50,135 nt of DNA, from NCBI GenBank assembly GCA_045545335.1, contig JAZQAS010000123.1:1-50135 (forward strand), in the 5' to 3' direction. The notes beneath the pieces were generated by a model. The model was given only the letters and a program-made list of their open reading frames with translations. It was not told the origin of the DNA and made no database searches. The stretch's first letter is position 1. The number at the start of each line of letters is the position of its first letter. This document shows positions 8,386 through 21,656 of the stretch, in pieces. The translations under genes were made by a program, and so were the position numbers. Source of the stretch: Candidatus Avispirillum sp. (GTDB lineage Bacteria; Bacillota; Clostridia; Oscillospirales; CAG-272).

Positions 8386-8422
8386 ATTCCCCTACGGGTC
8401 ACCAAAACAAAAGGACACCTTT
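8386..8422 (+). repeat. Direct repeat of tRNA-Glu 3' end plus left half of terminator; attL
   Basis: ATTCCCCTACGGGTCACCAAAACAAAAGGACACCTT is identical to 8161-8196; the right half of the hairpin is found at 21634-21656. Confidence 0.9.
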
Positions 8423-8481
8423 GGGGTCTTCACTTAAAGCAGTTTTGTGAGCGACGTCCTCAAGCGGTGTCCAAAAGACAG

Positions 8482-8526
8482 AAAGACCACACAATTGACT
8501 ATGATGTCGGCTGTGTGGTCTTTTTC
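8482..8526. terminator. Hairpin terminator at left end of island
   Basis: AAAGACCACACA...TGTGTGGTCTTTTT. Confidence 0.6.
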
Positions 8527-8537
8527 TGTTTGTAGGC

Positions 8538-8819
8538 TTACTCTTCAAAATCCAATCCCGTGAGCGTTTCGAGCATTAATCTTCCGCCGAGCCGGAATCC
8601 GTATGCGAATATCTCACGCTCGATAATGCCGTACATTTCATTGACACAATCATCGTATTTTGCCAAGGTTTCTTTCTGCTCTTCGGTGAGCGTTACGGAA
8701 AGGTTGTCACGGTTCTTACCCATAAGGTTCAGGAGGTTTTTGATTTCCCGATTGCCTTCGGTACTTTGTTCCTGGGGATTGATGTTTCCGTACCAAAACT
8801 CCTCAAGCAATGTCCTCAT
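8538..8819 (-). CDS. DUF6809-like small protein
   Basis: MRTLLEEFWYGNINPQEQ...L..TLTEEQKE.L.KY.DC..EM...IEREIFAYGFRLG; AGGAGG RBS before ATG 8819. Confidence 0.7.
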   Translation of the reverse strand: MRTLLEEFWYGNINPQEQSTEGNREIKNLLNLMGKNRDNLSVTLTEEQKETLAKYDDCVNEMYGIIEREIFAYGFRLGGRLMLETLTGLDFEE

Positions 8820-8934
8820 AATTCTCCTCCTTCCGCACATAACAAAACGACCGCATCTCCGAGATCATTCCCGGTGATACGGTCGTTTCTTTGTTTTTGG
8901 TTGTCTGTTTTGGCTTTGTTTTTATACGTGGCAT
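8803..8934 (-). CDS. Putative 43-aa leader/small protein overlapping the DUF6809 start
   Basis: AGGAGGTG RBS then MPRIKTKPKQTTKNKETTVSPGMISEMRSFCYVRKEENYEDIA*; contains a long hairpin at 8845-8889. Confidence 0.4.
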   Translation of the reverse strand: MPRIKTKPKQTTKNKETTVSPGMISEMRSFCYVRKEENYEDIA

Positions 8935-8990
8935 AATGTTGCACCTCCTTGTAGCACAACACTATACCGCCATACCTCCGAAAAGTCCAG

Positions 8991-9548
8991 TCATTTTGTT
9001 ACATCAAAAAAATATTCATTATTGATAGGCTTTGCATCGATTTCGTAGTTCTTTTTGCTCAATAGCGATTTGCGTCCGATAATATTCTTTTGAATGAGGA
9101 TTCCATCTTCGTTTTCAAGCTCACACTCGTAATAACAAAAGCCAAATATTTCAAGTATTATATTTGCACCAAGTCTGTTATGCCGAACATGCAAGAAAGC
9201 AAGAACAAAATAAAACAGTAAAAATAAAATCACGCCATACCAAACGGTAAAATCAAACGCAAACAGTGGCAGAACATATGTAAGAACATACTCTGCTGTG
9301 ATCAACTTTTCTTCCTTTATACTTTTCAACATGAACGGCTGCGCGCCTGACTTGTTTCCTTTCCTAAAAGATACAGCTACAACAATAGCAGAAACTATCA
9401 TAACAATAGCCATAATAGCAATGCTGATCATTTCAGTATAGATGTTTGGATTGCCATCAAATATATTCTTTCCATCAATGAATCCAATGGATAACCATAG
9501 CGGAGTCAGTGACAAATAAAACAAACTAAATGATTTTATTGCGGACAT
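8991..9548 (-). CDS. kwaA: Kiwa anti-phage membrane protein KwaA-like
   Basis: About 4 TM helices; YVLTYVLPLFAFDF...HVRHN...NIILEIFGFCYY pattern; adjacent to DUF4868-like gene. Confidence 0.7.
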   Translation of the reverse strand: MSAIKSFSLFYLSLTPLWLSIGFIDGKNIFDGNPNIYTEMISIAIMAIVMIVSAIVVAVSFRKGNKSGAQPFMLKSIKEEKLITAEYVLTYVLPLFAFDFTVWYGVILFLLFYFVLAFLHVRHNRLGANIILEIFGFCYYECELENEDGILIQKNIIGRKSLLSKKNYEIDAKPINNEYFFDVTK

Positions 9549-9563
9549 AGGGTTTCCTCCGTA

Positions 9564-18546: not shown

Positions 18547-19485
18547 ATGAATACTTACAGCAAAATGCTCCCTCATCTCGAGAGTGGTAGCTACGACTAT
18601 GATTTTTGGAACGCTATGCGTGGCAAACAGCACAATGATGAGCGCCTTGCTCACGGCAAAGATACCTCGACCAGTGCTTTCCATATGTCCACGATGAGCA
18701 ACAACAAGTATATGACGGCATTGCAGAAAGAGAGCATCTTCCGTCAGATCGGCACTTGTATTACCACCTACAACAATGGACACCGCATCCTTGCAAAGGA
18801 CACTACCGACCTGGCCGAATGGGTACCGGAAGGTGAAACCATCCCTATGCAGGAAAGCATCAATGACTTCACCGAGAAATCTCTCGGCAGCCACAAGCTG
18901 ACCGTGTTCGTGAAAACCGATGAGGACTTCATCCACGATGTCACCTTCGACTTTGAAGCCTACCTCACCAACCGCTTGGCGAAGAACTTCGGACGAGCCG
19001 AGGAAAAGGCATTTATCACCGGAACGGGCAAAAATATGCCCACCGGTATCCTTGCTGATAAGGATGGTGCGGATATCGGGGTAACGGCAAAGACCATCAC
19101 CTACGATGATGTGGTCAAGCTGTACTTTTCGGTCAAGCCCGAATACCGCAAACACGGTGTTTGGATGATGAATGATGAGACCGCCCAGGTTCTTCGCACC
19201 TTGAAAGATGACGGCGGTAACTATATTTGGAATCACACCAACGATACCATTATGGGTAAGAGGGTCATCATCTCCGAGTTTATGCCTTCTGTTGGCAATG
19301 GCAACAAGCCTATCGCATTTGGCAACTTCTCCTACTATTGGGTGGTTAACCGCCGCCCCGTGAGTGTACGTTGCTTGAGAGAAATGTTCGTTCTCCAGGA
19401 CCAGGTAGGACACCTCGCTTTTGAGTTCTTGGACGGCAAGCTCGTCCGTACCGAGGCTATCAAGGTAATGCAGATAACCGCATAA
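18547..19485 (+). CDS. HK97-fold phage major capsid-like protein
   Basis: AEWVPEGE.IP, LGSHKL, AEEKAFITGTGKNMPTGIL, WMMN..T...LRTLKD..GNYIW, IAFGNFSYY, DGKLVRTEAIK. Confidence 0.88.
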   Translation: MNTYSKMLPHLESGSYDYDFWNAMRGKQHNDERLAHGKDTSTSAFHMSTMSNNKYMTALQKESIFRQIGTCITTYNNGHRILAKDTTDLAEWVPEGETIPMQESINDFTEKSLGSHKLTVFVKTDEDFIHDVTFDFEAYLTNRLAKNFGRAEEKAFITGTGKNMPTGILADKDGADIGVTAKTITYDDVVKLYFSVKPEYRKHGVWMMNDETAQVLRTLKDDGGNYIWNHTNDTIMGKRVIISEFMPSVGNGNKPIAFGNFSYYWVVNRRPVSVRCLREMFVLQDQVGHLAFEFLDGKLVRTEAIKVMQITA

Positions 19486-19518
19486 TTTTCGGGAGGCCCC
19501 TTGTGGGATAACTGCAAG

Positions 19519-19616
19519 GGGCTATTCCCCCTAAAACTTATGCGAATTTTTACACGCAACCCCACGCCCGTTGTACCATCAAAAAGCCACAGAGATTTAG
19601 ATCCCCCTACCGGGGG
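19519..19616 (-). repeat. cos-like site 2 (inverted)
   Basis: Reverse complement reads AAATCTCT-N17-CAACGGGCGTGGGGT-N7-AAAAATTCGCA. Confidence 0.6.
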
Positions 19617-19634
19617 CTTGGAAAGGAGACGGCT

Positions 19635-19805
19635 ATGGATGTGAACTCCATTACAGAAAACAAAGCAAACCGAGTCACAGAAATACAGATAGGAGAAACG
19701 CTTTTTACAGTAGTCTCCGTTGAAAGTGACCGCGCCAAAGAGCACCTTTACGATAAGGTGAAGCGTTTGATACTGGACAACGCTGACCGCTCGCAGGCAG
19801 CATAA
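19635..19805 (+). CDS. TnpW-like small protein (56 aa, not in ORF track)
   Basis: GAAAGGAG RBS; MDVNSITENKANRVTEIQIGETLFTVVSVESDRAKEHLYDKVKRLILDNADRSQAA*; typical position upstream of TnpX-like recombinase. Confidence 0.75.
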   Translation: MDVNSITENKANRVTEIQIGETLFTVVSVESDRAKEHLYDKVKRLILDNADRSQAA

Positions 19806-19911
19806 CAGTTCGCAAATTATTATCATTTATATGTACAAATAACCTTGACTTATCCGCAATAGTACGGGAATATATAGTACCCGCTTGAGGACTGTCGGAA
19901 AGGAGTATAAA

Positions 19912-21570
19912 ATGAAACAATTAAATAGACAGCCCTCTACTATTGCAACGGATAAGATTACCGCCTTGTATTGCCGACTCTCCCGTGATGATGAGCTACA
20001 AGGAGACAGCAACTCTATCCTTAACCAGAAAGCCATACTGCAGAAGTACGCCGATGACAACGGCTTCGGCAACACGCAGTTCTTTGTGGACGATGGTTAC
20101 AGCGGTACGAATTTCGACCGCCCTGATTGGCAAAGGCTTATGTCCCTGGTGGACGAAGGTAAGGTAGCTACGGTTATCGTTAAGGATATGAGCCGACTTG
20201 GAAGAGACTACCTCAAAGTAGGTTATTACACCGAGGTGGTTTTGCCCGGCGCTGATGTCCGCTTCATAGCCATCAACAACGGCGTTGACAGTGCAAACCA
20301 ACAGGACAGTGATTTTACCCCATTCCTCAATATCATCAACGAATGGTACGCCAAGGACACAAGCAAGAAAATCCGTGCGGTATTCAAAGCAAAAGGTGAG
20401 TCCGGCAAACCGCTGTGTACCAACCCTCCGTATGGTTACATTAAAGACCCTGAAGACAAGCATCATTGGATTATCGATACAGTGGCAGCCGATGTTGTAA
20501 GGGATATTTTCAAAATGTGTGTAGCCGGAAAGGGACCCTCGCAGATAGCCAAGGCACTCTCGCAAAGGCAGATTCCCGTTCCCACAGTTCATTTGCACCG
20601 AATGGGTATTAACGCTCCAGCGAAAGAGCCGGAAGATATTTATGCTTGGCAACAGCGGACAGTATCCGATATCCTTATGAAAATGGAGTACTTGGGCCAC
20701 ACGGTCAATTTCAAAACCAAAAAGAAGTCTTACAAATCAAAGAAAAAGGTCAATAATGACCCTTCGGAGTGGGTTATCTTTGAAAACACCCACGAAGCCA
20801 TTATTGACCAAGAGACATTTGAAATTGTCCAGCGAATCCGCAACGGCAGACGCAGACTAACACCTATGGGAGAAATGCCGCTCCTCTCGGGAATGCTGTA
20901 CTGTGCGGATTGTGGTGCAAAGTTGTACCAGGTGAGAGCACGGGAATGGACACACGATAAGGAACATTTCGTATGTGCCACCTACCGCAAAAATCGAGGA
21001 AAATGCAGTTCTCATCAAATCCGCAACGTGCAAGTGGAGCAAATTCTGCTAACGGAGATAAACCGGATGTTGACCTTTGTTCGTGGACGTGAAGCTGAAT
21101 TTGTGGAACTCCTCACCAAGAAAAACGAACGAGAACTCAATCGGCAATTCCGTGAGTGCAGCCGTGAATTGGAGCAAGCCACACAGCGTATCAGCAAGCT
21201 GGACGAAATCATCCAACGGCTCTACGAGGACAACCTTGACGGAAAAATCACGGACGAGCGTTTTGTCAAGATGACCGCAACCTATGAGCAAGAGCAGAAA
21301 GACCTACAGGCACGGGTTGTGGTATTGCGTGAAACCATCAGCAAAGCAAAGGCGCAGCGTATCAACATCGATTCCTTTCTCGCACAGGTTAGAAAATACA
21401 CCGAAATTAAGGAACTCGATGCCGAAATCATCCGTACCTTCGTGGAACGCATTGATGTGTTCAAGCCTGAAAAAGTACCCGGCACACGTACCAAAAAGCA
21501 AACCGTCCTCATTCATTGGAATTTCATCGGTGCGGTGGAATTGCCCCAAGAACAGAAAAAATCGGCATAG
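19912..21570 (+). CDS. Large serine recombinase (TnpX-like; resolvase, recombinase, Zn-ribbon, DUF4368)
   Basis: [58 protein letters not shown] before ATG 19912. Confidence 0.95.
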
Positions 21571-21615
21571 CCGGATTTCTCCAAACTATGCCGATATTTT
21601 TCCAAGGAATAAAAT

Positions 21616-21656
21616 CCCTTAGTGAGACACCCTTTCGGGTGTCCTTTTTGTTTTGA
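21616..21656 (+). repeat. attR, containing the right half of the split terminator
   Basis: CCCTTAGTGAGACAC-CCTTT-CGGGTGTCCTTTTTGTTTTGAT; 3' part identical to 8195-8218. Confidence 0.85.

Follow-up and report, generated by a model that had tools for sequence, protein, structure and literature searches.

To our knowledge, phage satellites have been well studied in staphylococci, enterobacteria and vibrios, and are almost unknown in the anaerobic Firmicutes of the gut and rumen. We analysed a stretch of 50,135 nucleotides from Candidatus Avispirillum sp. (Clostridia; Oscillospirales; contig JAZQAS010000123.1 of assembly GCA_045545335.1), referred to below as the window, in which a discrete insertion of 13,213 bp (8423–21635) occupies a terminator hairpin loop downstream of a tRNA-Glu gene. 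This element is probably a member of an unnamed family of cos-type phage satellites of gut Clostridia, about 12.7–13.8 kb in length and analogous to SaPIbov5 with its capsid homologue Ccm; we file the family as new on the condition that packaging is shown. Our literature searches, in a library that is incomplete and does not cover supplements, brought up no paper on the combination of a lone capsid gene, a prim-pol and a DUF4368 recombinase.

SaPIbov5 carries the phi12 cos site together with Ccm, a protein that redirects head size and sits in the pentamers of a T=4 shell. Its helper is an HNH-dependent cos phage whose capsid protein has a delta domain, and the N-terminal region of Ccm is shortened, with 87 residues kept (PMC8569155). 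The Int protein of PLE (the phage-inducible chromosomal island-like element) is a large serine recombinase that acts site-specifically with a phage-encoded directionality factor, excision and packaging being dependent on the phage (PMC6002521). A sequence-only reading of the present locus had counted PLE among the satellites with tyrosine integrases; since its Int is a serine recombinase, a serine integrase in a satellite is not new in itself. Tn6215, at ~13 kb, is transduced by phage phiC2, and the word "capsid" is absent from the main text that describes it (PMC3870246); it was rejected as an element of the same kind, having no capsid gene.

The window element resembles SaPIbov5 in its lone capsid gene; it also has a conserved motif that it shares with phages.

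17523–17647, plus strand: phage-mimic motif, variant A (124 bits), ending at the ribosome-binding site of the small gene s85; candidate helper cos site and/or late promoter
18547–19485, plus strand: homologue of the HK97-fold major capsid protein (Phage_capsid, 8.7e-72; TIGR01554, 5.5e-76)
19493–19618, minus strand: phage-mimic motif, variant B (97.6 bits), an inverted copy just after the capsid gene

Residues 13–312 of the capsid protein align with residues 111–417 of the major capsid protein of the Oscillospirales phage PV036458 (39% identity), and the TIGR01554 match spans positions 84–384 of the 385 in the profile, which is the mature capsid fold. Because these alignments begin at phage residue 111 and profile position 84, the protein lacks the ~100-residue N-terminal delta (scaffolding) domain of its phage relatives, its start falling at about the start of the mature HK97-type capsid protein; no scaffold family was found among the neighbours of the gene. 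Relatives are cited here by our locus (L) and genome (G) labels. Against L002 the gene has a ratio of nonsynonymous to synonymous substitution rates (dN/dS) of 0.038, and against more distant copies one of 0.08–0.20, indicating strong purifying selection. A search of 1.84 billion representatives returned 333 proteins that match the capsid protein at E up to 1e-30, and among the best 60 of the 333, 48 are 290–345 aa long and one is of phage length. In a FastTree tree of 120 rows (79 short and 41 long forms, with lengths taken from the library's gene-start calls as they stand, and leaving out fragments <290 aa and proteins of 346–364 aa or >460 aa), 7 changes suffice to place the short form, whereas shuffled trees average 34.5. 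The window protein falls in a clade, starred in the tree, of 46 short forms and one long form.

Among relatives with a solved structure, the capsid protein is best matched by the capsid of the Rhodobacter gene transfer agent (GTA; 6TBA, 5.3e-25), and this could be read as pointing to an autonomous element whose lone capsid protein builds its own shells, compartment- or GTA-like, without a helper. Such an element is very improbable here, as there is no portal, terminase, protease or scaffold, nor a delta domain, to drive assembly, and the motif ties the element to phages that have portal, terminase and protease genes. Ccm alone makes no capsids either (PMC8569155).

A repeat search found inverted arms of 81 nt flanking the small genes and the capsid gene, and a 15-nt core, CAACGGGCGTGGGGT, is exact in elements whose capsid proteins share only 46%–57% identity. 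A profile built from six element copies detects the ~100-nt motif in nearly every element. It stands immediately ahead of s85 or a different small gene (plus strand), immediately behind the capsid gene (minus strand), or at both places, as in the window, L002, L003 and L005/L006/L037/L038. The motif is also found in 15 phage records, with 90.6% identity over 83 nt in NatCom_35866, 79.6% in PV036458 and ~75% in several Streptococcus Javan prophages. In every phage record inspected, it has an HNH endonuclease gene on one side and a Terminase_4 small-terminase gene (terS) on the other, and in two records a DUF1492/sigma70_r4 (RinA/ArpU-like) gene precedes the HNH gene or the motif; Pfam confirms the HNH, terS and RinA/ArpU-like sigma70_r4 proteins of the motif phages. 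An exact 14-mer occurs in 119 viral contigs, 83 of which hold the whole motif, the 36 without the rest being chance matches. In 76 of the 83 the motif is at most 1.2 kb from HNH and/or terS homologues, and the other 7 are element-like. The closest true-phage relatives of the capsid protein are the same phages that carry the motif.

The HNH–terS junction is the position of the cos site and of the late promoter in HNH-dependent cos phages (HK97, staphylococcal phages). In phages, and likewise in the plus-strand copies of the elements, the motif is always directly adjacent to a ribosome-binding site and start codon. Its 3' part comes in two sub-variants; the minus-strand copies of the elements are variant B, which is also found in phage contigs adjoining HNH and terS. 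As a structured RNA the motif was tried and rejected (RNAalifold on 93 copies gave 0 consensus pairs, and Rfam no family at E up to 0.1), and since its sequence is conserved and has no consensus structure, we take it for a DNA site of the protein-binding type. Where the sequence-only reading had spoken of cos-like sites, giving no coordinates, a conserved motif does stand at the two positions listed; its cos nature is a candidate assignment.

Some further observations concern the motif in phages. Its range extends from Streptococcus prophages to gut Heliusvirales, the 76 contigs being from IMG/VR, and its coordinates are 31200–31283 in PV036449, 12403–12510 in PV036458, 25770–25856 in MK448839 and 11149–11234 in MK448997. 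The invariant blocks are ATCTC and CAACGGGCGTGGGG, and in two records tiny open reading frames (ORFs) are annotated over the motif.

The same architecture recurs in other genomes. A scan with the capsid protein, using one genome per species, gave 13 loci; a recombinase gene directly follows the capsid gene in all 13, and in 12 it is homologous to that of the window (53%–92% identity). At L010 two distant large serine recombinases follow the capsid gene. TnpW is present in 11 of the 13 loci, s85 in 8 and s99 in 8. Upstream sequence is long enough to show a prim-pol/helicase in 11 loci, and 10 of them have one, four of these being of a different type (26%–36% identity). Recorded hosts are Acutalibacteraceae, Oscillibacter, Oscillospiraceae, Lacrimispora, Faecousia, Erysipelotrichaceae and Mycoplasmopsis gallinarum. 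Scans of viral contigs and metagenomes added more loci, including some with two tandem serine recombinases and with capsid proteins at only 30%–46% identity. Five elements with both ends measure 13,213, ~13,841, ~13,677, ~12,901 and ~12,738 bp despite unrelated cargo.

Both the capsid gene and the motif derive from phages, and one might therefore suspect a decayed prophage remnant in which a capsid gene was kept by chance; on that account homologues should consistently carry terminase, portal and tail genes. They do not: the terL, portal, protease, terS, HNH, adaptor and tail proteins of two reference phages have no match in any of 18 element loci. The compact architecture recurs in 13/13 loci from several families, and the backbone ORFs in the window are all intact with dN/dS of 0.04–0.2. 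In the related phages the capsid gene comes after terL, portal and Clp-type protease genes, and the motif, with terS and these genes between, is 8–15 kb from the capsid gene, versus ~1 kb in the element; the delta domain is cleanly absent, and the short capsid forms make up a large clade. Of all the explanations considered, a prophage remnant is the least likely. The sequence-only reading had proposed a satellite joining a TnpX/TnpW-type integration module to cos-phage parasitism; the conserved architecture, the lack of packaging and tail genes beside the capsid gene in relatives, and the shared HNH–terS motif support this core inference, while its points on the PLE integrase, the size fraction and the helix-turn-helix (HTH) gene needed correction.

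Three members of the family deserve separate mention. L008 (Mycoplasmopsis gallinarum DSM 19816, ~263–13001) is a member of ~12.7 kb in a terminator-like hairpin of a mollicute genome, with GmrSD and Dam/MutH-type genes in its cargo; its recombinase matches in two frames (11259–12245 and 12245–12937) and may be frameshifted. An Anaeroplasmataceae phage is among the relatives of the capsid protein, and helpers may therefore reach the mollicute lineage. L185 (G055:C35:565–4081) is a second element end, with a motif copy and then two tandem serine recombinases, and since it shares genome G055 with L009, one host can carry two members of the family. At L006 (11326–20537, Lacrimispora defluvii PI-S10-B5A) the recombinase gene is split, with residues to ~156 encoded at 11326–11793 and the rest at 19251–20537; the interruption of ~7.5 kb carries another large serine recombinase (17693–19270, 33% identity) and is a nested insertion, a second serine-recombinase element inside the integrase gene of the first.

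If the satellite reading is right, the course of events might be as follows. A Heliusvirales- or Javan-like cos/HNH siphovirus would infect the cell and trigger, or accompany, excision and replication of the element, which would leave the chromosome via its recombinase, perhaps with TnpW, and replicate from its own origin (ori). The motif would tie the capsid operon to the late activator of the helper and/or be cut as cos by the helper's TerS, TerL and HNH proteins. The delta-less capsid protein would co-assemble with helper capsid protein, portal and protease into small heads for ~13 kb, as Ccm does, and helper tails would complete the particle. In a new cell the circle would integrate into a terminator loop, probably at the TT within CCTTT, and the cargo would guard host and element against other phages.

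The phages listed as likely helpers have genomes of 47.6–79.5 kb, so that the element corresponds to 17%–28% of their length and not to the one third of a siphovirus genome estimated earlier. The main text of the Heliusvirales paper contains none of the words "satellite", "HNH", "cos" and "packaging". Heliusvirales-type phages are one of the most widespread phage lineages of the gut, and a more specific picture can be put forward tentatively, with more doubt than confidence: the elements would be dedicated satellites of Heliusvirales-type cos/HNH phages, the delta-less capsid protein re-sizing the helper head to ~13 kb, motif variants A and B serving two helper lineages, and the terminator-reading recombinase giving almost unlimited landing sites, which together would make a fast carrier of swappable defence cassettes across Clostridia and even Mollicutes.

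Several results weigh against a satellite. The sequence-only reading had predicted a circle junction and circular contigs of ~13 kb. In Logan contigs from four runs, the best of which holds 38% of the sampled words, no joint skipping 8423–21635 and no end-to-end (circle) joint was seen, and there are no direct terminal repeats in 9 metagenome loci, 5 viral loci and 7 further element-like viral contigs, nor in the 13,036-bp contig L041/L171. The metagenome-assembled genome of the host (79.6% complete) has no terL, portal, terS or HNH gene of the motif-phage type, and a motif search found no copy in it outside the element; in 10 other carrier genomes the only motif outside the element comes from the second element in G055. 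The motif may be no more than a late promoter or leader, and a simple cos model does not predict an inverted pair of copies. In viral contigs, true contig ends lie at varying distances from the motif, without the spike that cos ends would give. No backbone repressor or derepression switch was found in the window, where the sole HTH gene travels with a restriction-modification (R-M) cassette, and the three small genes have no family match that would assign them a function. In the data searched we detected neither excision nor circle formation nor encapsidation, and we therefore infer the mechanism. A low-depth contig that joins 19573 back to 17564 at the two motif cores was taken as a repeat artefact.

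These results keep the main rival explanation alive, namely a phage-sensing defence island, an integrative and self-replicating serine-recombinase element in which the motif only mimics the late promoter of a helper, the delta-less capsid protein and the small proteins, switched on by an infecting phage, poison head assembly, and spread is by other means such as low-frequency transduction or transformation. A promoter or leader would directly adjoin the ribosome-binding site and start codon, as the motif does; a scan for sigma-70-type promoters found none ahead of the capsid operon, the cargo is of the defence type, and no packaging evidence was found; the 13-kb serine-recombinase transposon Tn6215 is in fact moved by ordinary transduction (PMC3870246). 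The lack of an excised form, a helper or a repressor, the inverted motif pair and the scattered contig ends are why this explanation remains. A pure defence island, however, needs neither a dedicated replicon nor a narrow size range of 12.7–13.8 kb, both of which fit a head-size limit; the second copy of the motif (19493–19618) faces no gene; and the known case of interference by a capsid homologue, Ccm, belongs to a packaged satellite (PMC8569155). We consider a defence island unlikely, though worth keeping in play, and return to the satellite reading.

The extent of the element is defined by the following features.

8418–8422, unstranded: left CCTTT core, the attL crossover region, in the left half of the terminator hairpin after a duplicated tRNA-Glu 3' end
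8423–8537, unstranded: conserved left-end block GGGGTCTTCAC...GAGCGACGTCCTCAAGCGGTG with the terminator of the DUF6809 gene (8474–8531)
21571–21635, unstranded: conserved right-end block ...CCCTTAGTGAGACACCCTTT with the right CCTTT core, its last bases the same in L003, L005, L006 and L013
21631–21635, unstranded: right CCTTT core, within the right-end block

The CCTTT cores are 13,213 bp apart, core to core. A 5-bp repeat is trivial by itself, and the boundaries rest on three independent lines. First, the tRNA-Glu region recurs in a genome of the same genus (G004, locus L026), where an uninterrupted terminator hairpin occupies the homologous place; since this second terminator hairpin is intact there, the element sits in a terminator loop. 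Second, the right end ...GTGAGACACCCTTT is identical in L003, L005, L006 and L013, which past this point diverge at once into the right halves of other terminator-like hairpins. Third, three metagenome contigs from two ruminant-gut runs depart from the window exactly at 8423 and 21634/21635. The unit proposed by the sequence-only reading is confirmed by the core coordinates and by all three lines. The L003 element is flanked on either side by one half of a perfect palindrome, and the left-end block is also found at the left ends of L004, L008, L012 and L003.

The left flank consists, in order, of tRNA-Met, tRNA-Glu, a terminator, a sequence of ~170 bp, and a second copy of the last 40 nt of tRNA-Glu, joined to the left half of the second terminator, whose right half is located after the element. 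An empty site defined via the right flank was dropped; orthologues of the ABC transporter in congeners do not adjoin tRNAs, which leaves the left-flank homologue as the sole basis for the empty site. The ~170-bp sequence (8219–8385) recurs in multiple copies in genomes of the genus, a single genome having as many as 9 matching places, and its copies are flanked by copies of tRNA 3' ends and a terminator (the duplicate here spans 40 nt, 8386–8425). It predates the element, since the same arrangement is present in G004; it has no Rfam match, and looks like a small repeat, a unit resembling miniature inverted-repeat transposable elements, or a scar of tRNA-targeting elements.

Two genes at the right end make up the integration module.

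19635–19805, plus strand: TnpW-family small protein (Pfam PF14202, 5.2e-07)
19885–21570, plus strand: large serine recombinase, TnpX/TndX-like by its domains (Resolvase, Recombinase, Zn_ribbon_recom and DUF4368)

The true start of the recombinase is likely the ATG at 19913, behind AAAGGAG. It belongs to the "multi-targeting" clade of large serine recombinases of Durrant et al., which are mostly DUF4368 proteins, with one example of a TT core, and for which multi-site insertion is typical (PMC10083194); insertion at the TT within CCTTT, in many different terminators, fits this. The TnpX-like DUF4368 recombinase, the adjacent TnpW and the multi-site habit of the clade would also suit a mobilisable transposon of the Tn4451/Tn4453 type with phage-derived cargo, moving by conjugative mobilisation. 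To this we give only a small chance: neither the 17 window ORFs that were scanned nor the 30 cargo ORFs of relatives match a Mob/relaxase family, and the capsid module and the motif are conserved backbone, not variable cargo.

Between the cargo and the capsid gene lie the replication module and three small genes.

14463–14785, plus strand: five direct repeats of ~50 nt ahead of the primase gene, spaced 61–73 nt, which are candidates for iterons or operators
15065–17380, plus strand: replication protein of 771 aa, a prim-pol fused to a D5/P4-type helicase
17389–17478, unstranded: ori-like hairpin with a perfect 24-bp stem and an AT-rich loop of 40 nt (z = -4.6), directly 3' of the primase gene
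17648–17905, plus strand: s85, a small element-specific gene
17921–18220, plus strand: s99, a small element-specific gene, zinc-ribbon paralogue
18235–18534, plus strand: s99b, a small element-specific gene, zinc-ribbon paralogue of s99

The replication protein has the NrS-1-type prim-pol, D5_N, DUF5906 and Pox_D5 domains and the C-terminus of the P4-family primases; it matches the PHROG for DNA primase at 2.8e-156 and the P4-family primase TIGR01613 at 1.3e-67, and has a dN/dS of 0.07 against L002. The hairpin, already seen as origin-like in the sequence-only reading, is kept in four relatives (L013, L005, L009 and L007), and elements with a different primase have inverted arrays of GGTAGCAG iterons at its position; Rfam gave only sub-threshold miRNA look-alikes for 17389–17478. 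Taken together, the prim-pol/P4-type helicase, the ori-like hairpin and the repeats make up a predicted replicon of the element's own, as read from the sequence. No sigma-70-type promoter for the primase operon was found by a simple scan.

The ~600 bp upstream of the primase gene (14463–15060) consist of repeated units of ~70 nt, each with a palindrome of the TTTTCAAAAA/TTTTGAAAAA type and a CCGTATAGTGA box. Two small ORFs that overlap the repeats (14393–14569 and 14526–14801) are probably not genes.

The products of s85, s99 and s99b match no Pfam, PHROG, PADLOC or NCBIfam family. A model of s85 (pLDDT 74.9) has no significant fold match in the PDB, and its homologues are 15 unnamed proteins, the sole viral match being uncharacterised and the Atlas clusters "hypothetical" only. 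Homologues of s85 and s99 are in none of the 76 phage-like motif contigs.

The rest of the element is a leftward operon of mostly defence-type genes.

8538–8840, minus strand: DUF6809, the leftmost conserved backbone gene (Pfam PF20648, 2.1e-23)
8991–9548, minus strand: KwaA (PADLOC, 2.1e-13)
9564–10496, minus strand: KwaB-like (PADLOC, 6e-08; Pfam KwaB, 1.3e-08)
10501–11445, minus strand: second C5 methylase of the R-M cassette
11447–13006, minus strand: restriction enzyme with a FokI cleavage domain, R-M cassette
12999–14069, minus strand: C5 methylase, R-M cassette
14082–14291, minus strand: HTH controller-like protein, R-M cassette
14348–14320, minus strand: perfect sigma-70 consensus promoter (12/12), which drives the leftward cargo operon

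Pfam, PHROGs, PADLOC and NCBIfam, run on the 17 ORFs, confirm the genes that the sequence-only reading had listed (recombinase, TnpW, prim-pol/helicase, three small genes, capsid and defence operon), and the terminase, portal, protease, tail, lysis and relaxase families it had reported as missing indeed have no match among them. Leftward from the promoter the order is HTH, C5 methylase, FokI-type enzyme, C5 methylase, KwaB-like, KwaA, a gap, and DUF6809. KwaA, left unnamed in the sequence-only reading, completes the KwaA and KwaB pair of a Kiwa system, with KwaB ahead of KwaA in this element; as a candidate terS (unk185) it was ruled out, having no similarity to the phage small terminase. DUF6809 homologues stand at the left ends of L004, L008 and L012. 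Another is found in L043, a phage-like IMG/VR contig with a full head module, so that the leftmost backbone gene may also be of phage origin.

The R-M cassette including the HTH gene (10531–14367) is 86% identical in DNA to L004:1876–5717 over 3.84 kb, and outside the cassette the two backbones are 71% identical or less, or cannot be aligned. Because the HTH gene shares this identity, it is cargo of the cassette and not, as had been suggested, a regulatory switch of the satellite. The comparison points to a recent exchange of cassettes at the leftward slot. L004 combines the same R-M cassette with ApeA-HEPN; L008 has GmrSD, two methylases, and MutH- and PD-(D/E)XK-like nucleases; L012 a fused EcoRI-type/C5 methylase; L013 an AAA_15/21 ATPase and a type III R-M system; L003 a helicase-nuclease of 1095 aa; and L040 and L041 NERD, DEAD and Schlafen-type helicases. 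No phage structural or packaging Pfam family is found among the 30 cargo ORFs of relatives. Judging by these gene contents, the promoter-driven slot holds different, mostly defence-type cassettes in different members.

If these elements are in fact satellites, it suggests a large family, whose short capsid proteins make up at least 46 clusters (at 50% identity) in one clade, that is linked to a specific and abundant phage lineage through a shared cis element. It would also be a second, independent case of piracy by a capsid homologue, with a protein more extreme (delta-less) than Ccm, and a mobile slot for the exchange of R-M, Kiwa, GmrSD, ApeA-HEPN, type III R-M and helicase-nuclease systems, in units that virus-prediction pipelines label as fragments of "phage". 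The ~100-nt HNH–terS motif, an unannotated and strongly conserved phage element, is notable regardless of the satellite question.

Compared with the phage-inducible chromosomal islands (PICIs) and the cos-type SaPIs as a class, the element is a discrete island in the 10–15 kb range with its own integrase (serine, not the usual tyrosine), has a replication module predicted from its genes and the hairpin and iteron arrays, and has no phage structural, packaging-enzyme or lysis genes besides the lone capsid homologue; no counterpart to the master repressor of that class was found in its backbone. The likeness to SaPIbov5 and the cos-type SaPIs, drawn without sequence comparison to SaPI genes, lies in an integrated island of ~13–14 kb that brings its own replicon and a single capsid homologue of the HK97 type but no terminase, portal or tail genes. 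Unlike SaPIbov5, the element uses a DUF4368 large serine recombinase with TnpW and inserts into terminator loops at many sites, its replication protein is a prim-pol/P4-helicase fusion, and its capsid homologue is without any delta domain, whereas Ccm keeps 87 N-terminal residues. It also has no Stl-like repressor that we could find, its motif is often present twice and inverted, and its hosts are gut Clostridia with Heliusvirales-like phages as the likely helpers. The capsid-forming PICIs (cf-PICIs) likewise are satellites that encode a capsid protein, but they have a full head and packaging module, and here there is the capsid protein only, with no terL, portal or protease matches in the 18 loci.

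With PLE of Vibrio cholerae the element shares integration by a large serine recombinase and, on the satellite reading, dependence on a phage; hosts and helper type differ, the helper of PLE being the lytic ICP1, and we know of no capsid homologue of this kind in PLE. Like Tn4451, Tn4453 and Tn6215 it has a TnpX/TndX-like DUF4368 recombinase and TnpW (a likeness by family domains, not by direct comparison with TnpX), but these transposons carry Mob/TnpZ mobilisation and resistance genes and have no capsid gene, prim-pol helicase replicon or HNH–terS motif, and no Mob/relaxase gene accompanies the recombinase in the window. P4 uses the cos of its helper and a tyrosine integrase, and it is Sid, instead of a capsid homologue, that redirects head size; psu, sid, delta and epsilon did not turn up in the general family scans, in which no search was aimed at the P4 set. 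The element has, like P4, a P4-family primase-helicase (TIGR01613) flanked by repeat and hairpin ori candidates, and P4-like satellite genomes reportedly have a defence hotspot. The closest system in mechanism is SaPIbov5 and in integration module the Tn4451 family and Tn6215; as a putative satellite with a serine integrase the element is like PLE, and in replication protein and defence hotspot it is like P4.

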